Positions 19,338 through 57,432 of a DNA stretch of 64,000 nt are shown piece after piece. Under the pieces are notes generated by a model. It was not told the origin of the DNA. It saw nothing but the letters and a program-made list of their open reading frames with translations, and did not search any database. How positions within the stretch are numbered: position 1 is the stretch's first letter; each line of letters opens with the position of its first letter. The position numbers were made by a program, and so were the translations under genes. Source of the stretch: an uncultured virus (IMG/VR IMGVR_UViG_3300037488_003510) (Duplodnaviria; Heunggongvirae; Uroviricota; Caudoviricetes). Location of the stretch: the IMG/VR virus record IMGVR_UViG_3300037488_003510; one strand, given 5' to 3'.

Positions 19338-20351
19338 TCATCTCATGTCTCCTTGGTAAGCATCCGGCACAGCAACCGTGATTGTTTTTGGACGATTGAA
19401 AACCCATTTTACACCGAGGTATCCAGCGCCAGCACAAACCAGCAACCAGATCAAATTGCTACCCTTCGACACAGTCTTGCCAGGCTCATCGTAAGCCTCA
19501 GCGCGAGCTGTCTTCTTGGTCTCGACTACGCCATAGAGCCCAGCAGCTTCAATCCAAATCCGAGTAAGTCTGCGCAGGAATTCGTCGTAAACAGGATCGC
19601 CTGGACCGTAAGAGGCATCGGAATCGAGCGAGCGTGAATAGATAGAAGCCATACTTCGAGCTTCCGAAATAGCAGTTTTGAGAGCTTTGATGCTATTTTC
19701 TTCTGCTTCTTTCGCATCAGAGGGGAAAAGTGCTGAGGTAGCTATGGAAATAGGCGAGGTGGCAACCAATACTCGCCAGCCCCACCAAGGCATGTTTTCA
19801 TCCAGTAGTTTTTCACCACAGACAAGCCCAGCCTCAAGCTTGGCATGCATCTGCTTGACGCTCATCTTTTTGGGCATGGAGCGAAGTAGCGCAACCAACT
19901 CACCCATGTACGGAACTGGAATAATAGTCATGCCTTTTCCGACAAAGCGATCATGTAGCCGTCTAGACTCATTGAGAAACGAAGCAAACGTCTGCTTGTT
20001 CTCCGAACTCATCTGCCGGAAGACTCCCAATGCGCCATTGAGCTTGTCGGCAAAGGGAAGCCACGAAGTCATGAAGTTCGTCCAGGCGGTTTCGTCTTCC
20101 TTTGATAAGACTTTGTCGCCGTGGATTTTCCGAGCGTACTTGACACTGTCGTCGATGGTCTTCATCCATCGATTAGCAGCATCAATTTCAGTGAACTTGA
20201 TTTCGAGCACATCGAAGCCGCTGCTCGATCTCGGGGGATTTTTTTCCCACATGTCGCCCACGGCGATCCACTCGATGGAGCCCCTGGGAGGAGGCGCACC
20301 TCGGCCGTAGTTTCTGCCCTTCTGACTCCAGCTACGCAGATCGAAAGCCAT
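19338..20351 (-). CDS. C-terminally anchored helical protein with variant tag MAFDL...RNYGRG
   Basis: 337 aa; TM LIWLLVCAGAGYLGV. Confidence 0.7.
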   Translation of the reverse strand: MAFDLRSWSQKGRNYGRGAPPPRGSIEWIAVGDMWEKNPPRSSSGFDVLEIKFTEIDAANRWMKTIDDSVKYARKIHGDKVLSKEDETAWTNFMTSWLPFADKLNGALGVFRQMSSENKQTFASFLNESRRLHDRFVGKGMTIIPVPYMGELVALLRSMPKKMSVKQMHAKLEAGLVCGEKLLDENMPWWGWRVLVATSPISIATSALFPSDAKEAEENSIKALKTAISEARSMASIYSRSLDSDASYGPGDPVYDEFLRRLTRIWIEAAGLYGVVETKKTARAEAYDEPGKTVSKGSNLIWLLVCAGAGYLGVKWVFNRPKTITVAVPDAYQGDMR

Positions 20352-20611
20352 TACTCAGCCTCAGTGTCGATGCCGCGCCTACGAATATACGATCCTGCTT
20401 CGCTGACTTCTTGCACATGGATGTAAAGAGGGTTTTTGCCGACTGTCCAGGTTAGGCGTTTGAGCGGAACAGGAAGATCATCGTAATTGCCTTTGTCGGT
20501 ATACACAGCGACTACTTTTTCATCTTCATCTATTTGCACCATGAATTCAGCGAAGTCTTTGTATTTACCGTGACCGATGAGAAGTTGGATAGTGTGTTCA
20601 TCGTAAGCCAT
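20351..20611 (-). CDS. Triplicated small protein, copy 1
   Basis: MAYDEHTIQLLIG...AEFMV...NYDDLP.PLKRL.W. Confidence 0.8.
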   Translation of the reverse strand: MAYDEHTIQLLIGHGKYKDFAEFMVQIDEDEKVVAVYTDKGNYDDLPVPLKRLTWTVGKNPLYIHVQEVSEAGSYIRRRGIDTEAE

Positions 20612-20705
20612 AGATCACCTTCCTTTTGAGGTTCGATAGATGCTGACAAGGCCCAGAAACGCGAGTTTCGGCCCTTCTGACTCCAACTACGCAAATCGAA
20701 AGCCA

Positions 20706-20966
20706 TTACTCAGCCTCGGTGTCGATGCCGTGTATTCGGAGGTACGATCCTGCTTCTTTAGCTTCTCGAACGTGGATGAAAATAGGATGTTGTCCTAATG
20801 ACCAGTGTAGTCGTTTGAGAGGAGGGGGAAAATCGTCATAATGGTCTCTGTCAGTATACACATGGATCACTTCTCCATCCTCTTCTGTTTGCACCATGAA
20901 TTCAGCGTGGTATTTGTGTTTACCACGACCAACGAGAAGTTGGATAGTATGTTCATCGTAAACCAT
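20706..20966 (-). CDS. Triplicated small protein, copy 2
   Basis: Same motifs. Confidence 0.8.
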   Translation of the reverse strand: MVYDEHTIQLLVGRGKHKYHAEFMVQTEEDGEVIHVYTDRDHYDDFPPPLKRLHWSLGQHPIFIHVREAKEAGSYLRIHGIDTEAE

Positions 20967-21056
20967 AGTTCACCTTCCCTTTGAGGTTCGATAGATGCTA
21001 GCGAGTCCTAGAAACGCGAGAGCCGCCGACAGTGATAGAGTGCAGATCGAAAGCCA

Positions 21057-21323
21057 TTACTCAGTCCCAGTGTTAAAGGCATGCTTCCGAAGGTATTTCC
21101 ATGCTTTGTCAGGCTCGAATGTATGGATGAATTGGGTATGTGAAGTAGAGGAAGCACTCCAATCTAATCTCTTCAATGGAGGAGGAAGATCGTCGTAATT
21201 ATCTCGATAGGTGTGCACATCCTCTGCGACACCATCTTCATTTATCGACACCATAAATTCAGCAACTGTTCGAAACTTTCCCTTTCCAACCAAAAGCTGA
21301 ATGGCATGCTCATCGTAAGCCAT
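21057..21323 (-). CDS. Triplicated small protein, copy 3
   Basis: Same motifs. Confidence 0.8.
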   Translation of the reverse strand: MAYDEHAIQLLVGKGKFRTVAEFMVSINEDGVAEDVHTYRDNYDDLPPPLKRLDWSASSTSHTQFIHTFEPDKAWKYLRKHAFNTGTE

Positions 21324-21326
21324 AGT

Positions 21327-21566
21327 TCACCTTCCCTTTGAGGTTCGATAGATGCTAGCGAGTCCTAGAAACGCGAGAGCCGCCGACAGCGATAGAGTGC
21401 TAATTTTCACGATGTTGCCAATCTTGCGGACATCGTACCGGACATCATCCACCTTGGCACGCAGGCGTTTCTCTTGGCTGTCGGGCAAGAACAGCGAACC
21501 TACAGCATCGCTGTTCGCTCTCCCCCAGTTTCGCCTTGTGTTGCCTAAGATGAGATCTAACGCCAC
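21327..21566 (-). CDS. Small membrane protein with MALDLILG tag
   Basis: Tag plus C-terminal TM. Confidence 0.7.
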   Translation of the reverse strand: MALDLILGNTRRNWGRANSDAVGSLFLPDSQEKRLRAKVDDVRYDVRKIGNIVKISTLSLSAALAFLGLASIYRTSKGR

Positions 21567-46076: not shown

Positions 46077-46676
46077 CTACTCGACAGCCGGGCCGACGAG
46101 ACCACCCTGGAAGTTGCGGGCGGCCGGGTTCTGGTTGGTGACCGAGATCGTCACGAACATCGAGATCTGAGCCGTGTCCATCTTCAAACGGACGCCGAAC
46201 GCATTCTCGGTGAACATAACGGCCGGCAGAGCGCCGGTCGACACCAACTGCGAGTTCTTGCCGACCTTGATGTCGGTGATCAAGAAGTCAACCGCGATGT
46301 TCGAGGGAACGACCAAACGCTCAGGACGGAAGATGACCTGGGGCTGGACGTTGATGTTTGCCGAGCTGTTGCCGGCAACGCTGGTGCTGCCAAGACCGAG
46401 AGCATACTCACGCGAGCTGCGAGGAGAGACCGAGCGCAACAGAGCACCCGATTCCACGCGGCGACGGAGCAGGTCGCGAGCCATAGCAGTCTTCTTGGCG
46501 TTCTTCTTCCGGCGCGCGAGAACCGCGCCCAGAATGTCGTCACCCGACTCATCGCTGTCACCAACGAAAGCGCCGGATTCATCGTCCCCGTCGAGCAGAT
46601 CGCCGAGAATTTCAGTGGTCTCGAAGCCGAGAGAGTCATCGCCATCGAGCAAATCGCCGTACATGTCCTTGACCAT
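46077..46676 (-). CDS. Candidate major capsid protein (acidic leader plus ~110-aa beta domain, single jelly-roll-like)
   Basis: Acidic N-terminus with SLG/ILG/FVG motifs; all-beta C-terminal domain; GC3-rich codons; AAAGGA SD; near head of structural operon. Confidence 0.55.
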   Translation of the reverse strand: MVKDMYGDLLDGDDSLGFETTEILGDLLDGDDESGAFVGDSDESGDDILGAVLARRKKNAKKTAMARDLLRRRVESGALLRSVSPRSSREYALGLGSTSVAGNSSANINVQPQVIFRPERLVVPSNIAVDFLITDIKVGKNSQLVSTGALPAVMFTENAFGVRLKMDTAQISMFVTISVTNQNPAARNFQGGLVGPAVE

Positions 46677-48508: not shown

Positions 48509-48853
48509 ATGTCGCCAATGGCCAATCACGTAAAAGGCTGCAACTGTTCGATGTGTGGACCTGTAAACACCCCGGATAGACTGACCGAGTTTCCCATAGT
48601 CGCTTTGTACATGGCGCTATTTCCACCTGAGCCAATTCCGACAGAACCATCGGATAAATTGCTTGTTCCTCATCGCTCGCCATCTACCGGGTATCTTTCG
48701 GGCGATCCGCAGCTGTTGGCCGAGCTATCAGGGCTGCGGGAGGAGATCGCTAAACTGGCAAAGACTGAAGAAGGGATTCGAGAGCTACTGACTCGCTTCT
48801 TAGACCGCGAGCGACAGTCATCTGTTGCCAAAAACAGAAACTCAGATGAATAA
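48509..48853 (+). CDS. Hypothetical with Cys motif and coiled coil
   Basis: HVKGCNCSMC; SD. Confidence 0.55.
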   Translation: MSPMANHVKGCNCSMCGPVNTPDRLTEFPIVALYMALFPPEPIPTEPSDKLLVPHRSPSTGYLSGDPQLLAELSGLREEIAKLAKTEEGIRELLTRFLDRERQSSVAKNRNSDE

Positions 48854-49262
48854 GATAACCGGGCGAGAATCTGTGATTGGCTTTGACACTGTAACTGTAA
48901 AGCCTGGCAACACAGAAGAAGTGTCAGTCAAAACGTCTCACCCTTTCATACTGGAGCATCTTGTGGCATCGCGGTCAAATGGGAGTGATAAACTGTTTGT
49001 GGCAGATCTAACCAGTAATGGCCATAGCTTAATAACGTCGGGATGCCAGACACCATTCTGCATGTTCGAAGTCGACCAATGGCCAATGATTTTTGGGAAT
49101 GTAGTCACGACGGCAGGCGAGAAGATCGCTCTTAAGGTGGAGAACGTATCAACTGAAACGGTTGATGTTCGAGCAGCAGTCTGTGGGATGATGTTCAATT
49201 CAGAACAAGACGCAAACGAATGGCTGAGACTTCGACAAGTAAATAGAAAGGGATTACGATGA
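48846..49262 (+). CDS. Capsid-family paralog 2
   Basis: IGFDTVTV.PG...PF..EHLV...DL...G.SLI...MF...LKVEN...RAAVCG. Confidence 0.65.
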   Translation: MNKITGRESVIGFDTVTVKPGNTEEVSVKTSHPFILEHLVASRSNGSDKLFVADLTSNGHSLITSGCQTPFCMFEVDQWPMIFGNVVTTAGEKIALKVENVSTETVDVRAAVCGMMFNSEQDANEWLRLRQVNRKGLR

Positions 49263-49840
49263 GCGAGAACACACTTCAAAAAATCTTGGTTGGCATTGCG
49301 CCCGACAAACTCCTCGAAGGGGCATTAGACGTCATCGGAACAGATCGTCTGTACGAGGAAATCCTCCGACGATTTTGCGAGAAGGACAAAATCGACTTGC
49401 CCGCGCTGCCCGATGGATCTTCGATGGTCGCCTTGGGACTAGGCAGCACCTGTGTTGCCGGCAACAGCTCGGCGAACATTAACGTGCAGTCGTTTCGTGA
49501 CTTCATTCCAGATCGCCTGGTGATTCCAACCTACTGCGCGGAACACTTCCTAGTCACGGATATCAAGAATGGGGGAAACACGATTTTTTTTGACAGCACC
49601 GGATGTGCTCCGGCGATGTTTTCCAATGAGCGAGTTTACAACTTCAAGTTCGCTCCCGAAGTGGCTCGCTATTTGGGTTACGTGAGAGTCAGTGTGACCA
49701 ATCAGTCGCTGACAGCTAGAAACTTCCAAGGGGTCATTGTTGGTCATACTCCACCCATGGGCGCAAATGCCTTAGCAGCCGCTAAGAACTGTTTGGAGAC
49801 AGTGGCTGCGCTCATGATCAGCGGGGATACTCATGGATGA
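49259..49840 (+). CDS. Capsid-family paralog 3
   Basis: ALGLGSTCVAGNSSANINVQ vs ALGLGSTSVAGNSSANINVQ; SVTNQ...ARNFQG. Confidence 0.85.
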   Translation: MSENTLQKILVGIAPDKLLEGALDVIGTDRLYEEILRRFCEKDKIDLPALPDGSSMVALGLGSTCVAGNSSANINVQSFRDFIPDRLVIPTYCAEHFLVTDIKNGGNTIFFDSTGCAPAMFSNERVYNFKFAPEVARYLGYVRVSVTNQSLTARNFQGVIVGHTPPMGANALAAAKNCLETVAALMISGDTHG

Positions 49841-49874
49841 AAGACAACATGTGACAACAAAGGGGGAGAGCGCG

Positions 49875-50447
49875 ATGAGCGAGAACGCTCTACATCAGAT
49901 CTTGGCTGGAGGCGATCTTGACAAGTTGCTCGAAGCAGCATTGAGCCACATCCCAGAAGATCGCCTGAACAATGCTGTCTTCCACCGATTTTGCGAAAAG
50001 GGGTACGGGGCCAAAGCCAACTTGCGCAAACTGTCGAATGGGGAGATGGAGTGTGTTTTAGGACTCGGCAGCACAATTGTTCCCGGAGAATCGAGGTGCA
50101 ATATCAATGTGCAGCCAGGCCAGACATTCATTCTAAATCGCTTGGTGATCCCCTCTTACTGCGCCGATGATTTTCTGGTTACGAATATCATGGTCGGGAA
50201 GAATTCGATATTCCCTGATAACGAGAGAGGTGTTCCAGCTGCCCTTTTCAGTGAGAGAGAATACAACTTCAAACTCATACAAGTGGAAGCTCCTTCCCTG
50301 CTTTTCATTAGCGTGATGATTGTTAATCAATCACCTTATGACAAGGCTTTTCATGGTGCTCTTATTGGACACACTCCACCAGCTGGCGACATTTCCTCGG
50401 AGCAGGCAACTCCAGTTCTCCTCCCCTGCGGCGACACTTACGGATGA
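49875..50447 (+). CDS. Capsid-family paralog 4
   Basis: LGLGST...NINVQP...RLVIPS...VGKNS...PAALFSE; N-terminal domain shared with paralog 3. Confidence 0.85.
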   Translation: MSENALHQILAGGDLDKLLEAALSHIPEDRLNNAVFHRFCEKGYGAKANLRKLSNGEMECVLGLGSTIVPGESRCNINVQPGQTFILNRLVIPSYCADDFLVTNIMVGKNSIFPDNERGVPAALFSEREYNFKLIQVEAPSLLFISVMIVNQSPYDKAFHGALIGHTPPAGDISSEQATPVLLPCGDTYG

Positions 50448-52049: not shown

Positions 52050-52781
52050 CTATTCAGCTTCTAGAACGGTAGTCCAGTACGGTTTCCATTCCTCCGGAAC
52101 CCGTTGCATATCCATTTTCACGGTCATAGCTGGAAGATAGGATGGTTTGCGAGGTCTTTTGAGCAATTCCATACCGCCCCTGATAGAACCCACGCCCAGC
52201 TCGGATGCTTTGTCCATGACTTGATTCCGATCAGGGGAATTTTCATCGAACATGACGATAGCTTTTTCCTTGAGGACCGAGGCTGACGTGACCGACGGAT
52301 CTTCTCTAATGTCAGTGACGAACTGCTCAGCCAAAGCATTTGTCTCGAAGACGAAGTTTCGGCATTCCTTGACCTCAGCCGGTAGACGGTTGCTCTTTTG
52401 CTTGTTGCATGGAACGCAAGCCGTGACAATGTTCTCCCAGGTGGTTTTGCCTCCGCGAGAACGAGGAATAACGTGATCGAAGGTCAACTCTTCTGACTCA
52501 AATCGAGTTCCGCAGAACTGACACTTGGAGCCATCGCGAGTGTAGATGTTGAGTCGTGAGAACTTAACTCGAATGCGATCTCGCTTGAAGTTGTGCAGCA
52601 CACGAACAACCGAGGGCATAGGCCAGGCGCGACTCACTCCTTGGATGGTTCGGTCTTTGGAGTATTCGAGCACTTCGACCTTACCGAGGAAAAAGTCGCA
52701 AATGACCCGTTGCCAGTTTTCCACCCGGAGGGGGCGCATGCCTACGTCGAGGACAAGTACAGCGGCGTTCATGGAATTCAC
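52050..52781 (-). CDS. HNH endonuclease with internal insertion
   Basis: SRLNIYTRD..CQFCG...TFDHVIPRSRGG...WENIVTAC..CN..K. Confidence 0.9.
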   Translation of the reverse strand: MNSMNAAVLVLDVGMRPLRVENWQRVICDFFLGKVEVLEYSKDRTIQGVSRAWPMPSVVRVLHNFKRDRIRVKFSRLNIYTRDGSKCQFCGTRFESEELTFDHVIPRSRGGKTTWENIVTACVPCNKQKSNRLPAEVKECRNFVFETNALAEQFVTDIREDPSVTSASVLKEKAIVMFDENSPDRNQVMDKASELGVGSIRGGMELLKRPRKPSYLPAMTVKMDMQRVPEEWKPYWTTVLEAE

Positions 52782-52814
52782 CTTTTTCTACAGTTTTCGA
52801 GTGTTGGTTGATAG

Positions 52815-52897
52815 TGTCTCCCGAGGGAGTCGAACCCTCACGATCTTACGATCACCAGATTTTGAGTCTGACGTGACTGCCATTTCACCAGGGAGAC
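52815..52897 (-). tRNA. tRNA-Leu(CAA)
   Basis: Cloverleaf, loop CTCAAAA, long variable arm. Confidence 0.9.
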
Positions 52898-52923
52898 ATG
52901 AAGGATGTGTGGTGCGGAAAGGT

Positions 52924-53036
52924 AAGGTGAATCCGGCTCTCCACCGAATGAGGCCGGATAGTACCACGTCTCGCTCGCCGTTTTTCGAGGTACTGGATGG
53001 TTCCCCCGCGAGCTTCGGTGCCGACTGGTTCACCTT
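52924..53036 (-). ncRNA. Unknown structured RNA (possible double pseudoknot)
   Basis: 8-bp closing stem, two hairpins, two loop-pairing segments. Confidence 0.6.
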
Positions 53037-53037
53037 G

Positions 53038-53121
53038 TGCCGAAGACAGGAGTCGAACCTGCACGCTCTTTCAAGCAACCGATTTTAAGACGGCCGAGTC
53101 TACCATTCCATCCACTTCGGC
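53038..53121 (-). tRNA. tRNA-Leu(TAA)
   Basis: Loop CTTAAAA. Confidence 0.9.
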
Positions 53122-53127
53122 AAGTTG

Positions 53128-53210
53128 TGCGCCCAGGAGGAGTTGAACCTCCACGACCTTTCGGCCACTAGGTTCTGAGCCTAGCGTGACTGCCATTCCA
53201 CCATTGACGC
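53128..53210 (-). tRNA. tRNA-Leu(CAG)
   Basis: Loop CTCAGAA. Confidence 0.9.
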
Positions 53211-53224
53211 AAGTACAAACTGAG

Positions 53225-53307
53225 TGGTGGGCGTGGGAATCGAACCCACACGACCCGAGGGCCACAGGTTCCTAAGACCTGCGCGGCTGCCATTACGCCA
53301 GCCCACC
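53225..53307 (-). tRNA. tRNA-Leu(TAG)
   Basis: Loop CTTAGGA. Confidence 0.9.
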
Positions 53308-53326
53308 AAGAGACTGGTTATCATTG

Positions 53327-53409
53327 TGCGAATGGGGGGAGTCGAACCCCCACGAGGTTTCCCTCACCAGCACCTCAAGCTGGCGTGACTGCCATTCCAC
53401 CACACTCGC
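53327..53409 (-). tRNA. tRNA-Leu(GAG)
   Basis: Loop TTGAGGT. Confidence 0.9.
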
Positions 53410-53421
53410 ATGAAACTCTTG

Positions 53422-53493
53422 AGCCGACAGGGGAACTCGAATCCCCCTTTCCTGCTTACCAAGCAGGCGAGTCGCCATCTACTCATTGCCGGC
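53422..53493 (-). tRNA. tRNA-Thr(GGT)
   Basis: Loop TTGGTAA. Confidence 0.8.
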
Positions 53494-53507
53494 AAAATCT
53501 ATCAAAG

Positions 53508-53580
53508 AGCCCTCGGCGAGAATCGAACTCGCAGATCTTCGCTTAGGAGGCGAAGCCCGATTCCAGGTTCGGACAAGGGT
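53508..53580 (-). tRNA. tRNA-Arg(CCT)
   Basis: Loop CTCCTAA; A1-C72 mismatch. Confidence 0.8.
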
Positions 53581-53584
53581 AAAT

Positions 53585-53660
53585 TGGTGGACCCGCCCGG
53601 ATTTGAACCGGGAATGAACAGTTTATGAGACAGTTGCTTTAACCGTTAAGCCACAGGTCC
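53585..53660 (-). tRNA. tRNA-CAT, probably Ile2
   Basis: Loop CTCATAA, GGACCTG acceptor, encoded CCA. Confidence 0.75.
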
Positions 53661-53666
53661 ATTGAG

Positions 53667-53738
53667 CGCTCGCGAAGGGACTCGAACCCTCCTCAGTCGG
53701 TAGACAGCCGACCAGCCTCACCCGATGCTTACGCGAGC
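53667..53738 (-). tRNA. tRNA-Asp(GTC)
   Basis: Loop CTGTCTA, G73. Confidence 0.85.
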
Positions 53739-53766
53739 ATGAAAATCGAACGAGCCAAACAAATTG

Positions 53767-53837
53767 TCGGAGTGGAGGGAATTGAACCCCCATCAATGGT
53801 GTGTAGGACCATGGCCCTGCCGTTAGACGACACTCCG
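53767..53837 (-). tRNA. tRNA-Val(TAC), atypical
   Basis: Loop CCTACAC (C33), CGG acceptor, A73. Confidence 0.7.
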
Positions 53838-53838
53838 T

Positions 53839-53912
53839 TGGTACCAGCGGCGGGGAATGATCCCACTCCACTCGCTTATGAGGCGAACGTCCCATCCACT
53901 TAGGTCACTGGC
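53839..53912 (-). tRNA. tRNA-Met(CAT)
   Basis: Loop CTCATAA, encoded CCA, degenerate T-loop. Confidence 0.7.
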
Positions 53913-53920
53913 GTACTTTG

Positions 53921-53995
53921 CGTCCATGGAGGGACTCGAACCCCCACTATTCTCGCTTCGTAGGCGAGGACCTTATCCAATTAGGCAACATGGAC
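53921..53995 (-). tRNA. tRNA-Arg(ACG)
   Basis: Loop CTACGAA. Confidence 0.9.
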
Positions 53996-54002
53996 AAAAA
54001 AT

Positions 54003-54079
54003 TGGTACCCACGGAGGGACTCGAACTCCCAACATCTTGGTTCGAAGCCAAGTGCTCTGATCCATTGAGCTACGCGGGC
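54003..54079 (-). tRNA. tRNA-Arg(TCG)
   Basis: Loop CTTCGAA, encoded CCA. Confidence 0.9.
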
Positions 54080-54086
54080 ATTATTG

Positions 54087-54160
54087 TGCTCCCAGGGGGG
54101 CTCGAACCCCGCATTCCTGGCTTGAAGGGCCAGTGTCTTGACCAATTGGACGATGGGAGC
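54087..54160 (-). tRNA. tRNA-Glu(TTC)
   Basis: Loop CCTTCAA (C33). Confidence 0.85.
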
Positions 54161-54164
54161 GAAC

Positions 54165-54241
54165 TGGTGATCTCGGGGGGAGTTGAACCCCGCATTCCGG
54201 CAGTGAGAGTGCCGTGTCCTACCAGATTAGACGACGAGATC
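54165..54241 (-). tRNA. tRNA-Glu(CTC)
   Basis: Loop CTCTCAC, encoded CCA. Confidence 0.9.
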
Positions 54242-54460
54242 GTAGAACCAAGGTGATGTGAAGTGAGAGGTTGGAGTTGGCGGAGGTCGAACACTCGTTA
54301 CGGCCTCAGCAATGAAGTCTGGTCCCTTGTCTCGATGGTAGAACCGACTTTTCATGAACTCTATGAAGGTCCAGTAGCAAGCACCGCAGTAGACAACATC
54401 ATCGGAAAAGATGTGCCCACTTTGGGGATGGTATGGCCCCCCGCAAGCAAAGCATCGCAT
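54227..54460 (-). CDS. Small CxxC...CxxC protein inside the tRNA array
   Basis: MRCFACGGPYH...YCGAC; AGGGGG SD; fills the only large gap in the array. Confidence 0.65.
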   Translation of the reverse strand: MRCFACGGPYHPQSGHIFSDDVVYCGACYWTFIEFMKSRFYHRDKGPDFIAEAVTSVRPPPTPTSHFTSPWFYDLVV

Positions 54461-54477
54461 GAAAACCCCCTAGTTAG

Positions 54478-54551
54478 TGCTCCCGGCAGGAGTTGAACCT
54501 GCAATCTCGGGCTTAGAAGGCCCTTGCTCTGATCCATTGAGCCACGAGAGC
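54478..54551 (-). tRNA. tRNA-Arg(TCT)
   Basis: Loop CTTCTAA. Confidence 0.9.
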
Positions 54552-54559
54552 GTGATGAT

Positions 54560-54681
54560 TGGAGACCGTCGAAAGGTTGCCCTTTCCGAAAGGTATTCTA
54601 GCTAGTTTCCCGCGCGAGGTTCAAGCATGGCTTGTGAGCCGTCGATATCCTTCTAGTAGCCATTCTCTCGCCACAACGGTC
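54560..54681 (-). ncRNA. tRNA-like RNA with CCA end and expanded anticodon domain
   Basis: 7-bp acceptor GACCGTT/GACGGTC followed by T-CCA. Confidence 0.6.
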
Positions 54682-54686
54682 ATAAG

Positions 54687-54767
54687 CTCTCGGGGCAGGA
54701 CTCGAACCTGCAATGTTTTTCAACGCACGGTTAACAGCCGTGTGCCCTGCCATTAGGCGACCCGAGA
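54687..54767 (-). tRNA. tRNA-Asn(GTT) with enlarged variable loop
   Basis: Loop CTGTTAA, G73. Confidence 0.85.
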
Positions 54768-54771
54768 ATAG

Positions 54772-54843
54772 AGCTGGAGATCGGAGTCGGACCGACAACC
54801 TATGGTTTACAAAACCATTGCACTACCGTTGTGCTACTCCAGC
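54772..54843 (-). tRNA. tRNA-Thr(TGT)
   Basis: Loop TTTGTAA. Confidence 0.9.
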
Positions 54844-54844
54844 G

Positions 54845-54940
54845 TAGCGGGGGCCGGACTCGAACCGGCGAAACCGAGGTTATGAGCCTCGTGGGTTGCG
54901 ATCTGGCATTTCTGTCAGATCTCCTTTTCCCTACCCCGCA
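54845..54940 (-). tRNA. Initiator-like tRNA-fMet(CAT) with hairpin inserted in D-loop
   Basis: TGCGGGG/CCCCGCT with 1:72 mismatch; CGAGG-CTCATAA-CCTCG. Confidence 0.8.
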
Positions 54941-54941
54941 G

Positions 54942-55014
54942 AGCCCCTGTGGAGAATCGAACTCCATTCTTCGGCTTACGAGGCCGACGCATCACCAAAG
55001 CATGCTTCAGGGGC
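54942..55014 (-). tRNA. tRNA-Thr(CGT)
   Basis: Loop CTCGTAA. Confidence 0.85.
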
Positions 55015-55020
55015 AAGTTG

Positions 55021-55091
55021 AGCACCGTACTGGACTTGAACCAGCGTAGCCAGCTTGGAAGGCTGGAGCCCAACCCCTAGGCCAACGGTGC
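55021..55091 (-). tRNA. tRNA-Gly(TCC)
   Basis: Loop CTTCCAA, U73. Confidence 0.85.
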
Positions 55092-55101
55092 AAAAACGTA
55101 G

Positions 55102-55174
55102 AGCGAAGAACGGGACTCGAACCCGCATGGTCCACCTTGGCAAGGTGGTGCATAGCCAATTCTGCCATCTCCGC
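55102..55174 (-). tRNA. tRNA-Gly(GCC)
   Basis: Loop TTGCCAA, U73. Confidence 0.9.
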
Positions 55175-55320
55175 AAACCTGACAACAGAGCACGGGCTAA
55201 GACGGGTGATCGTCCCATGTTGCCCATGGTGAGCCAGGGAGAACCACAGCGACTTCTTCGAGGTGTTTTCTCTCCTGATCAGGTGAGAGGACTTTTCCCG
55301 AATACTGACTGTGATTTTTG

Positions 55321-55391
55321 AGGTTCCGACAGGACTTGAACCTGTGTAGCGGGTTTTGCAGACCCGAGCCTAGCCACTCGACCACGGAACC
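55321..55391 (-). tRNA. tRNA-Cys(GCA)
   Basis: Loop CTGCAAA, U73. Confidence 0.9.
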
Positions 55392-55397
55392 ATACTG

Positions 55398-55481
55398 AGG
55401 AGAGCAGCGTACTCGAAACGCAAGCTCGAAAGCTCCATCGGTTTAGCAAACCGCGACGACGCCCTAGTCGCTTTACTCTCC
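55398..55481 (-). tRNA. tRNA-Ser(GCT)
   Basis: Loop TTGCTAA, long variable arm. Confidence 0.85.
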
Positions 55482-55487
55482 AAAATG

Positions 55488-55571
55488 AGGAAGGCGAGAG
55501 AATCGAACTCCATGCCCGAGGGCACACACCGCTTTCGAAACGGGTGCAGCTCCATAGCTGCGTCACCTTCC
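55488..55571 (-). tRNA. tRNA-Ser(CGA)
   Basis: Loop TTCGAAA. Confidence 0.85.
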
Positions 55572-55576
55572 AACGG

Positions 55577-55660
55577 AGGAGAGCGAAGGGCACGATCCTT
55601 ATGCCCGAGGGCACGCACAGCTTTCCAGACTGGCCAGGCGCCATCGCCTGTTCACTCTCC
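55577..55660 (-). tRNA. tRNA-Ser(GGA)
   Basis: Loop CTGGAAA. Confidence 0.8.
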
Positions 55661-55665
55661 AATAG

Positions 55666-55749
55666 AGGAAGACGGAGGTGACGATCCCCAAGCCCAAGGG
55701 CTCCAGCCGCTTTCAAGGCGGTGCTCGGTCCACACCAAGTTCATCTTCC
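55666..55749 (-). tRNA. tRNA-Ser(TGA)
   Basis: Loop CTTGAAA. Confidence 0.8.
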
Positions 55750-55752
55750 GTC

Positions 55753-55826
55753 TGGCGGGTCGTGAGGGAATCGAACCCCCATAAGCAGATTTGGAGTTTG
55801 CTGTCCTACCGTTAGACGAACGACCC
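55753..55826 (-). tRNA. tRNA-Trp(CCA)
   Basis: Loop CTCCAAA, G73, encoded CCA. Confidence 0.9.
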
Positions 55827-55838
55827 AATAATTCGTTG

Positions 55839-55909
55839 TGGAGCCACTGAGAATTGAACTCAGATTAACAGACTGCCAGCCTGTTGTCCTCCCGTTGGAC
55901 GATGGCCCC
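55839..55909 (-). tRNA. tRNA-Ala(GGC)
   Basis: Loop CTGGCAG, G3:U70. Confidence 0.9.
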
Positions 55910-55914
55910 ATAGT

Positions 55915-56017
55915 GCCGGGTATCCTCCCGTTGGACGACTGACTTGCCACTAGCTGTATGCGAACGCATCTTGGTTATATGGCAAACCAGACCAGAATCG
56001 AACTGGCATCCCCCAGC
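55915..56017 (-). ncRNA. Circularly permuted tRNA-like RNA (YrlA/Y-RNA-like topology)
   Basis: T-arm and acceptor 3' strand precede acceptor 5' strand and D-arm. Confidence 0.7.
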
Positions 56018-56021
56018 GTCG

Positions 56022-56094
56022 TGGATCTGAAGGGACTCGAACCCTTTGCCTCCGGCTTGCAAAACCAGCGCTCTCCCAGTTGAGCTACAGACCC
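56022..56094 (-). tRNA. tRNA-Ala(TGC)
   Basis: Loop TTTGCAA, G3:U70. Confidence 0.9.
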
Positions 56095-56106
56095 GAATAC
56101 TTGTTG

Positions 56107-56179
56107 TCGGGGTGACAGGAATCGAACCTGCTGCCTCATGCTCCCAAAGCACGCGCTCTACCATGTGAGCTACACCCCG
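56107..56179 (-). tRNA. tRNA-Pro(TGG)
   Basis: Loop TTTGGGA. Confidence 0.9.
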
Positions 56180-56183
56180 GTAG

Positions 56184-56254
56184 GGTGACCAGTGGGGATC
56201 GAACCCACGATAGCTGGTTCACAGCCAGCCGCCTTACCACTTGGCTATGGCCAC
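56184..56254 (-). tRNA. tRNA-His(GTG)
   Basis: Loop CTGTGAA, C73; G-1 not encoded. Confidence 0.9.
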
Positions 56255-56256
56255 AG

Positions 56257-56328
56257 TCCTCTCGTTGGGAATTGAACCCACTTCGGTCGCCTATCATGCG
56301 ACTGCACTAACCAATGTGCTACGAGAGG
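56257..56328 (-). tRNA. tRNA-Ile(GAT)
   Basis: Loop ATGATAG. Confidence 0.8.
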
Positions 56329-56403
56329 TTGAGCAGTGTGCAGACGGTCTGTTGAACGTCCGGTTGACTTAAGAACCTGCACTGTTCATCAACAACTTTT
56401 TTG

Positions 56404-56476
56404 TCAGCGTGGCGGGAGTCGAACCCGCAGATTCTTGCTCCCGAAGCAAGCGGCTTACCATCAAGCCATCACGCTG
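56404..56476 (-). tRNA. tRNA-Pro(CGG)
   Basis: Loop TTCGGGA. Confidence 0.85.
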
Positions 56477-56480
56477 ATTG

Positions 56481-56551
56481 TTCCGGTGGAGCGAATCGAA
56501 CACTCGTAGATGGCTCCAAAGGCCACCGTCCTGCCATTGGACGACACCGGA
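56481..56551 (-). tRNA. tRNA-Gln(TTG)
   Basis: Loop CTTTGGA, U1-A72. Confidence 0.85.
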
Positions 56552-56555
56552 ATAG

Positions 56556-56629
56556 TTCCCGAGAGAGGAGTCGAACCTCTAACCAACGGAGTCAGAGTCC
56601 GCTACGCTTCCAGTTTGCGCCACTCGGGA
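56556..56629 (-). tRNA. tRNA-Gln(CTG)
   Basis: Loop CTCTGAC, U1-A72. Confidence 0.85.
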
Positions 56630-56639
56630 ATACTATCAG

Positions 56640-56712
56640 TGCCCCTCTCCAGAGTTGAACTGGACCCTCCGCGTTTTCAGCGCAGCGCTCGTCCCACGAG
56701 AGCTTAAGGGGC
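56640..56712 (-). tRNA. tRNA-Phe(GAA)
   Basis: Loop CTGAAAA. Confidence 0.85.
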
Positions 56713-56754
56713 ATAAAGACGGGACTGGTGATCCCGCCGCATGTAAACTATGAA

Positions 56755-56786
56755 GTTGTCAAAGAGTCCTCGGAAGCAAACCGAGG
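56755..56786 (-). promoter_or_regulatory. boxB/boxA-like antitermination signal
   Basis: Hairpin CCTCGG-N7-CCGAGG followed by CTCTTTGACAAC. Confidence 0.65.
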
Positions 56787-56792
56787 CTTGAG

Positions 56793-56864
56793 TGGGATGC
56801 CTGAGAATCGAACTCAGATTGACCGATTAAGAGCCGGCGGTTCTAACCGTTGAACTAGCAACCC
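56793..56864 (-). tRNA. tRNA-Lys(CTT)
   Basis: Loop CTCTTAA. Confidence 0.9.
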
Positions 56865-56868
56865 GTTG

Positions 56869-56941
56869 TGCTTGCGGAGGGACTCGAACCCTCAATGAGA
56901 GGCTTAAAAGGCCACTGCCCTAACCATTGGGCTACGCAAGC
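56869..56941 (-). tRNA. tRNA-Lys(TTT)
   Basis: Loop CTTTTAA. Confidence 0.9.
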
Positions 56942-56947
56942 GGAGTG

Positions 56948-57026
56948 TGGGTGAGGGGGGAATCGAACCCTCCTTGCCGAGGCCACTGGTTTACAGCCAG
57001 CTCCCACTCCATGTGAGATCTCACCC
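56948..57026 (-). tRNA. tRNA-Tyr(GTA)
   Basis: Loop CTGTAAA, variable arm. Confidence 0.85.
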
Positions 57027-57109
57027 GTAAAGTTTCGAGTGAGCTTTTATACGGTCCTGAATCCATGAACTCTGCGCTCCCTTCAGTTGTCTCGATGCCC
57101 CTGAAACTG

Positions 57110-57142
57110 AAAAAGCCGCCTCAGTTTCCTGGGCGGCTTTTT
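57110..57142 (-). terminator. Attenuator terminator upstream of tRNA array
   Basis: AAAAAGCCGCC...GGCGGCTTTTT. Confidence 0.8.
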
Positions 57143-57164
57143 CGAAGAAGTTGTGGTTCTCCTA

Positions 57165-57317
57165 CTAGCCGCCCCTGGTACCCTCCTGCTTGATCCCAAA
57201 AAGGCGCGTGGTCAGTCTCGGGTTCAAGTCTTTGGACGATGGAATGCTCCACGCATACACCAACCCCGAGGCCATCCGGTCTGCGAGGTGTGAGGTATGT
57301 TGCGAGCTGCGTTCCAT
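57165..57317 (-). CDS. Putative 50-aa leader peptide
   Basis: ATG 10 nt after the -10 box; last codons (RGG-stop) form the antiterminator strand. Confidence 0.55.
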   Translation of the reverse strand: MERSSQHTSHLADRMASGLVYAWSIPSSKDLNPRLTTRLFGIKQEGTRGG

Positions 57318-57327
57318 GATGCTTTCG

Positions 57328-57356
57328 AAGGTAGTCCAGCTTCCCCGTGGGGTCAA
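57328..57356 (-). promoter_or_regulatory. sigma70-like promoter of tRNA operon
   Basis: TTGACC-N17-TACCTT with upstream A-tracts (UP-element-like). Confidence 0.7.
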
Positions 57357-57432
57357 GCACTTTTTTTCAGTGGTGTTCTTTTTTCTTGTCTTTACCGTCG
57401 GTGAGCCGACTTCGATGTGTGCCGAATAGGCT

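Follow-up and report, generated by a model that had tools for sequence, protein, structure and literature searches.

Why phages and other mobile elements carry full sets of tRNA genes, often silent, is a long-standing question. It is raised by the stretch of DNA analysed here (the window), 64,000 nucleotides of an uncultured virus (IMG/VR IMGVR_UViG_3300037488_003510; Duplodnaviria; Heunggongvirae; Uroviricota; Caudoviricetes). The original prediction, made from the letters alone, was that a ribosome-sensing attenuator controls a 40-tRNA operon in it and releases the tRNAs when translation falters. Such a built-in sensor, active only under faltering decoding, would be a concrete and testable answer to the puzzle of silent arrays, and would tie them to tRNA depletion by starvation, antibiotics or an anticodon-nuclease defence.

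The predicted size of the operon was borne out: about 40 tRNA genes were tallied, 34 by ARAGORN at default settings, five at a relaxed score and one by eye. The relaxed-score calls are four tRNA-Ser genes and one tRNA-Met(CAT) (55397-55749 and 53839-53912), all on the minus strand, divergent enough to score below the default and having altered T-loops; a sixth such call, located inside a small ORF, was discarded as spurious. A tRNA-Met(CAT)-like gene missed by ARAGORN (54844-54940, minus strand) bears a hairpin insertion of ~25 nt in its D arm, which is probably the cause of a weak match to the Y RNA-like Rfam family YrlA (54792-54899, E 0.0025). The array also contains a 77-aa ORF (54227-54460, minus strand) with two CxxC pairs, zinc-finger-like, for which PHROGs gave no match. 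The HNH gene that follows the last tRNA (Table 1) is probably the end of the operon, and the array of a related viral record (G005) is likewise closed by a homologous HNH gene. With its co-oriented tRNA cluster, its location on a mobile element and the adjacent HNH gene, this array belongs to the long mobile tRNA arrays (L-arrays).

Table 1. Features of the tRNA operon and its leader (positions in the window).
Feature	Position	Strand	Details
HNH endonuclease gene	52050..52781	-	Pfam HNH_5/HNH, PHROGs HNH; directly after the last tRNA
tRNA array, ~40 co-oriented genes	52814..57026	-	order begins Tyr-Lys-Lys-Phe-Gln-Gln; encoded CCA mostly absent
Spacer element common to the window and G005 (~30 nt)	57036..57067	-	from alignment
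Intrinsic terminator	57109..57143	-	5' arm AGCCGCCC 57138-57131; 3' arm GGCGGC 57120-57115; U5 57114-57110
Inner hairpin inside the antiterminator helix	57144..57162	-	from folding; equivalent hairpin of different sequence in G005
Leader ORF (uORF), near-leaderless, 50 codons	57165..57317	-	ATG 57317; stop 57167-57165
Antiterminator strand GGGCGGCT	57167..57174	-	spans the last 2.3 uORF codons and the T of the stop
CAGGAG (Gln-Glu) element	57183..57188	-	7 codons 5' of the uORF stop; recurs as xPE/QE/EE
Sigma70-type promoter TTGACC-N17-TACCTT	57328..57356	-	-35 57356-57351; -10 57333-57328
A7 tract	57361..57367	-	directly 5' of the -35 hexamer; presumably UP-element-like

All elements of the predicted leader could be located in the window. 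The promoter has 8 of 12 consensus matches, which is under the 9/12 threshold of an automatic scan; that scan of the window called neither the leader promoter nor the minus-strand terminator. A/T-rich stretches at the place of the A7 tract are seen in many homologues (by listing, uncounted). The ATG of the uORF lies 10 nt past the -10 hexamer, without a Shine-Dalgarno sequence, and the ORF ends, as predicted, in Arg-Gly-Gly (AGG GGC GGC TAG). Its peptide matches no Pfam family. The prediction had stressed the use of 19 amino acids with Cys absent. This count is correct (with 39 distinct codons in 50), but in a single 50-codon ORF it has a P of 0.11-0.12 and is not significant alone, and the missing Cys is not a trait of the family. 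Trp, Tyr and Val are each represented by a single codon. The predicted complementarity is perfect over 8 bp: the antiterminator strand is the exact complement of the terminator 5' arm (P = 0.003 by mononucleotide shuffle for a complement of at least 8 nt within the last 50 nt). The computed energies are -26.0 kcal/mol for the terminator hairpin, which is followed by U5, and -24.2 kcal/mol for the antiterminator with its inner hairpin. Taken on its own, the window provides evidence for an attenuator that is suggestive only.

Two other potential pairings were observed in this region. At 57103-57131 (minus strand) the loop side of the terminator, GAAACUGA, can pair after read-through with UCAGUUUC past the U tract, which would bury the terminator 3' arm in a loop; similar arrangements are seen by eye in some homologues. 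The 3' end of the spacer element shared with G005 can, by eye, base-pair with the 5' strand of the tRNA-Tyr acceptor stem, and the spacer is possibly a processing element or a second regulatory element.

For the comparative analysis, viral, genome and metagenome collections were scanned with patterns that describe a terminator and a first tRNA, with neither uORF nor antiterminator specified. The resulting set comprises 58 non-redundant arrays among the matches listed (22 viral, 24 genome, 11 metagenome and the window), from which three arrays without a hairpin, five with a tRNA upstream (internal sites) and 21 near-duplicates had been removed before counting; 54 non-array terminators were used as controls. 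A first pattern, in which the antiterminator was named, gave 46 loci, 40 of them without any tRNA, and none of these except L035 was counted. Among the matches listed, the carriers are viruses and records of Myxococcota, actinomycetes (including Micromonospora, Actinoplanes, Amycolatopsis and Dactylosporangium), Lachnospiraceae and Acidobacteriota; cultured actinomycetes with such leaders are Micromonospora tulbaghiae DSM 45142, Actinoplanes cyaneus NBRC 14990 and Dactylosporangium roseum NRRL B-16295. The arrays that start with Tyr-Lys (29 loci minus L113, whose promoter was not found, and five near-duplicates) form a subgroup of 23 leaders.

An ATG-initiated uORF of 24-70 codons, with its stop 19-47 nt 5' of the terminator core, is present in 54 of the 58 arrays among the matches listed, compared with 6.7 expected from dinucleotide shuffles (simulated maximum 18), 5 of 46 when the tested interval was moved by 100 nt, and 14 of the 54 control terminators outside arrays. 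The limits for stop position and length were set after most loci had been viewed, and for this reason the later cases, G005 and L449, matter. The terminator stands 5' of the regulated genes, with 98.7% of cells paired across 26 sequences (its core being fixed by the search pattern), and in most arrays the first tRNA begins only ~10-25 nt past it, leaving no room for a second promoter. In the subgroup the best-scoring -35 element is TTGAC in 21 of 23 leaders (the scoring favoured TTGACA), and in 14 of 23 the start codon is within 10 nt of the -10 hexamer.

The held-out leader of G005, a record reached only via a protein, shows the same organization: TTGACA-N17-CACAGT, an ATG 9 nt later, and 49 codons using 19 amino acids and ending GGC GGC TGA, with the antiterminator at the stop. 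Downstream come an inner hairpin, a terminator carrying a compensating change and then 38 tRNAs called by ARAGORN. The second held-out case, L449, has a promoter and a 48-codon ORF, again with 19 amino acids and with the antiterminator at the stop. The G005 array (L447) is interrupted by several HNH-like or mobile ORFs and contains tRNA-Ile genes with TAT and AAT anticodons. In actinomycete leaders such as L208, L274, L230 and L258, an A/T-rich tract lies directly 5' of a TTGCC-type -35 element, a promoter type which we take to resemble WhiB7/WblC-dependent promoters.

The alternative pairing recurs along with the uORF. The strongest duplex formed with the 5' arm of the terminator has a mean energy of -13.4 kcal/mol in the arrays, as compared to -8.7 in the shifted interval and -7.8 in the controls, and the mean is -15.4 kcal/mol for 17 Tyr-Lys-Lys arrays with the window and L035 left out. 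The duplex is individually significant in 17 of 58 arrays and, by group, in 9 of 17 in the subgroup; among Trp-first arrays (5 of 29) the signal is weaker. In all 23 subgroup leaders the antiterminator starts between -16 and +8 nt from the uORF stop, so as to comprise the last Gly-Gly codons or the segment just behind the stop. Covariation in homologous arrays, which the original prediction had proposed as a check, was found: in an alignment of 26 sequences, 11 cells are changed on both sides of the helix compared with 3.0 in shuffles that ignore phylogeny (0 of 500 shuffles). Controls slid by -1 to -3 give a similar 8-16 such cells, and the terminator core was fixed by the search patterns. 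The covariation score is 0.163, versus 0.030-0.098 for slid pairings, and one of the antiterminator pairs is G-C in 19 sequences, A-U in three and C-G in one.

The dependence of this pairing on ribosome position was evaluated in a footprint model, in which RNA 5' of the ribosome footprint is removed and the transcript ends before the terminator 3' arm. A ribosome at least 12 codons from the stop leaves the 5' arm sequestered in all 23 leaders, a ribosome at the stop in 4-5 of 23; for the window the model places the switch at codon 43-44. In the model without a ribosome, on a transcript that stops short of the 3' arm, upstream pairing sequesters the 5' arm in all 23 leaders. The full-length equilibrium calculation for the same leaders has all 23 terminating when the ribosome is at the stop, with 11 of 23 homologues switching and the antiterminator losing in 12 of 23. 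For the window, the terminator has a probability of 1.0 at every ribosome position. As it wins at equilibrium in every state, the switch in the window would need kinetic trapping (the first-formed helix persisting), and such persistence of the antiterminator helix is plausible. Together with the recurrence of the uORF and the position of the antiterminator, the footprint model supports the predicted logic, namely that a ribosome at the stop would mask the antiterminator and a stall would give read-through.

The composition of the leaders points to what may be sensed. At least 19 amino acids are used in 15 of the 23 subgroup leaders, whereas the base composition of these leaders predicts 1.1. 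In the other frames 2 of 46 reach this number, as do 3 of 38 equal-length pieces of nearby long ORFs. The number of distinct codons is likewise in excess (757 versus 690±9 under synonymous recoding, z 7.2); the other two frames show some excess (z 3.0 and 3.9) and the gene pieces give z -4.9. Seen across homologues, both features support a sensor of the tRNA pool. Since no excess of distinct codons is seen in the 35 leaders from the remaining arrays (901 versus 908), and their amino-acid mean is near expectation, this completeness is, on present sequences, a trait of the Tyr-Lys subgroup.

Synonymous codon choice in the subgroup is also biased. The NAU and NAC codons of Tyr, His, Asn and Asp are read by queuosine-bearing GUN tRNAs. 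For these codons the NAU:NAC ratio is 73:35 over a background of 29% U, with an NAU share of 36% and 42% in the other frames; leader by leader, U exceeds C in 15 and falls below it in three, the window being among the three. The held-out G005 and L449 leaders together have a ratio of 10:1. In four-codon boxes, by comparison with a background of 32%, U-ending codons make up 15%. In Vibrio cholerae, loss of queuosine is reported to have raised TAT decoding (PMC11703503), so any queuosine effect here may run in either direction.

The peptide itself appears to be of little consequence. In close pairs, substitutions are spread evenly across codon positions (101/112/114) and pN/pS is 0.62; judged from these alignments, the leader peptide sequence drifts almost freely and the frame, the start and the stop position are conserved. 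Indel lengths are multiples of three in 22 of 36 cases, a partly circular count to which little weight is attached. The CAGGAG element recurs as a SNGGAR hexamer in 13 of 23 subgroup leaders, in each case within the final 36 nt and aligned with the codons (13 of 13). On this comparative evidence it is probably the codons read, and not the peptide made, for which the leader is translated.

Overall, we consider it probable that the tRNA operon is controlled by a ribosome-dependent attenuator of the whiB7/wblC type acting on transcription; a single locus proves little, and it is the homologue counts that make this case decisive. Comparison among homologues establishes the architecture, the selection for in-frame translation, the amino-acid and codon completeness and the alternative pairing. 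We infer the start site, the coupling and its kinetics, the induction, the feedback and the natural stress. The switch would operate as follows. Transcription would begin only a few nucleotides 5' of the ATG, with a ribosome then translating the 50-codon leader. When decoding is fast, GGGCGGCU would be hidden under a ribosome on the last 6-7 codons during synthesis of the terminator, so that the terminator hairpin would form and transcription would end before the first tRNA. A ribosome lagging in codons 1-43, or one that fails to load, would leave GGGCGGCU free to pair with the 5' arm of the terminator ahead of synthesis of the 3' arm; with the antiterminator formed, the polymerase would continue into the ~40 tRNA genes and on into the HNH gene. 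As the leader contains almost every amino acid and a wide range of codons, read-through may be triggered when nearly any tRNA is scarce, uncharged, cleaved or poorly modified, or when the ribosome is inhibited. The newly made tRNAs would then relieve the stall, closing a negative feedback loop. Anticodon nucleases are one plausible trigger; starvation, a phage-driven drain on tRNAs and antibiotics would fit equally.

A more ambitious reading, possible in our opinion but advanced tentatively, is that the leader checks the entire tRNA pool codon by codon, modification state included, and is used across phyla against host tRNA cleavage or hypomodification. It is prompted by the tendency of the leaders to maximise distinct codons, to avoid U in four-codon boxes and to prefer NAU over NAC. 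Mobile elements of several phyla would thus sense tRNA damage and release a full replacement set in a self-limiting manner. If true, this would also account for long tRNA arrays looking silent in culture. The 220-nt leader is clonable and, as the proposed sensor, would serve as a reporter of tRNA-pool damage.

The same attenuator could instead be a generic sensor of ribosome stress, such as that caused by antibiotics, with an incidental leader composition and with tRNA supply unmeasured by the switch. In our model any stall indeed yields read-through, the actinomycete-type leaders lack a codon excess, and the trn array of Anabaena responds to translation inhibitors (PMC8421152, in the portion available to us). 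However, the strong selection seen in the window's subgroup, which is specific to the frame and favours a full set of amino acids and varied codons, would be purposeless in a pure drug sensor, and as a complete account we find this one unlikely; the generic-stress and tRNA-pool readings are in any case compatible, not exclusive. It is likewise improbable that the terminator merely ends a short constitutive transcript, the array being read by means of a phage antitermination protein or an altered polymerase and the peptide having a separate function. In favour of this explanation, the terminator prevails at equilibrium in the window and a weak C-terminal xPE/QE motif is kept in frame, but the peptide drifts nearly neutrally, its stop is tied to a covarying antiterminator arm, and the design is present on bacterial chromosome contigs too. 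Based on the drift and the position of the stop, a functional leader peptide was rejected.

An RNA switch that binds a protein or a tRNA and so sets the fold, the ORF being incidental, would suit regulated genes that are themselves tRNAs, and a terminator/antiterminator pair is usual in such switches. The T-box riboswitch binds tRNA directly, responds to one amino acid each and has no translated leader; it shares with the attenuator considered here the coupling of tRNA charging state to a terminator/antiterminator choice, the direct binding of tRNA being peculiar to the T-box. In our leaders, however, it is the reading frame that is conserved and the body sequence that is not. The search for Rfam leader families in the window at E<=1 returned none but a chance match to RcsR1 (E 0.74), and in 10 homologous loci Rfam matched tRNA families only. 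With no T-box match in the window or in these loci, a T-box riboswitch was rejected, and we regard the broader class as very improbable. As to mere coincidence, a third arm and a nearby ORF are common at GC-rich terminators, the non-array terminators pass the uORF test at the rate given above, and the 19 amino acids of a single ORF are unremarkable (P about 0.11). The 54 of 58 arrays against 6.7 expected, the two held-out confirmations and the frame-specific composition contradict chance, which was rejected and to which we assign a next to negligible probability. The ribosome-dependent attenuator therefore remains our preferred reading.

The window looks, by its sequence, like a large phage-like element. 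Pfam matches were obtained for 8 of the 28 window proteins tested, and one window protein is an endolysin-like amidase. A 199-aa protein (46077-46676, minus strand) has Atlas look-alikes that are 80-82% viral and lack Pfam matches; its sole close relative, a protein of G005 (a 194-kb viral record), is 66% identical to it. It belongs to a family of paralogous, beta-rich proteins, encoded here and at 48825-50447 (plus strand), which have in common a motif around NINVQ. A 24-nt tandem repeat occupies positions 1-362 in 10 overlapping registers, and three diverged units, spaced by ~355 nt, lie at 20309-21400 in an ORF-poor stretch. Among the named genomes in the matches listed, the arrays most like that of the window belong to MAGs of a Polyangiaceae member (L256) and a delta-proteobacterium (L241), a hint that the phage may have a host in the Myxococcota. 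The Tyr-first pattern, when applied to 401 genomes of the phylum of L256, returned the seed genome only, and in 301 genomes of its family it gave one further match; the array is thus sporadic there. The HNH protein used alone as a query found no viral relatives, and blastn of the window array against phage and plasmid collections returned single-tRNA matches only (coverage <=9%). RtcB is encoded in one of five related viral records (G005, distant from the array) and Tgt in none of the five, which is no real support for a repair module and speaks neither for nor against anticodon nucleases as the trigger.

Attenuators of the trpL, hisL, leuL and thrL type repeat one or two control codons in runs and possess a 1:2 protector helix. 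The present leader shares with them a leader peptide and a ribosome whose position chooses between competing antiterminator and terminator. In contrast to them, it would be a near-universal sensor, having no control-codon runs and, as far as the model goes, no protector helix, the ribosome-free antiterminator forming in 23 of 23 leaders. With 39 distinct codons in 50, no run and the 5' arm sequestered even without a ribosome, a classical attenuator of this type was rejected for the window.

The closest parallel is provided by the whiB7/wblC leaders of Actinobacteria. According to the accessible part of that work (10.1101/2023.06.02.543512), a distal promoter is followed by a short uORF whose efficient translation leads to a Rho-independent terminator; poor translation leads to an antiterminator and read-through, and the amino acids of the uORF set the inducing starvations. 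The tRNA leaders described here have the same logic of promoter, uORF and terminator/antiterminator, with an in-frame short ORF, a terminator before the regulated genes and an antiterminator lying under a ribosome at the uORF end. No sequence homology was seen between the two. As far as that text goes, the whiB7/wblC leaders control a transcription factor, whereas those studied here control a tRNA operon with an HNH gene on mobile elements; the uORF of whiB7 is rich in Ala and may be devoid of some amino acids, whereas the tRNA-array leaders appear to be selected for completeness and codon diversity. With tRNAs and HNH as the regulated genes and 3 Ala in its 50 codons, the window leader is not a whiB7/wblC leader itself.

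Among tRNA arrays, the L-array of the Anabaena PCC 7120 trn operon is repressed by the DNA-binding protein TrcR (PMC8421152; PMC10272220). Judging from the available portions of these reports, L-arrays such as trn resemble the window array in being horizontally spread, normally silent, adjacent to HNH and induced by translational stress; the difference is that Anabaena trn uses a DNA-binding repressor, whereas the window array is predicted to be under an attenuator. The strings 'attenuat', 'terminator' and 'uORF' are absent from the main texts of both. Phage tRNAs have been described as a counter to host anticodon nucleases, replacing the cleaved tRNAs (PMC10264068; PMC11464382), which, in the accessible parts of these papers, matches the purpose originally proposed for the window array; the available text of PMC10264068 contains none of 'attenuat', 'terminator' or 'leader' and no sensor switching the tRNAs on. 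Among the mostly open-access full texts searched, no title or abstract opening on tRNA-array attenuation was found, so that a prior report is possible. The class of mechanism is already known from whiB7/wblC; what appears to be new here is the gating of tRNA genes by it and the apparent audit of the tRNA pool.
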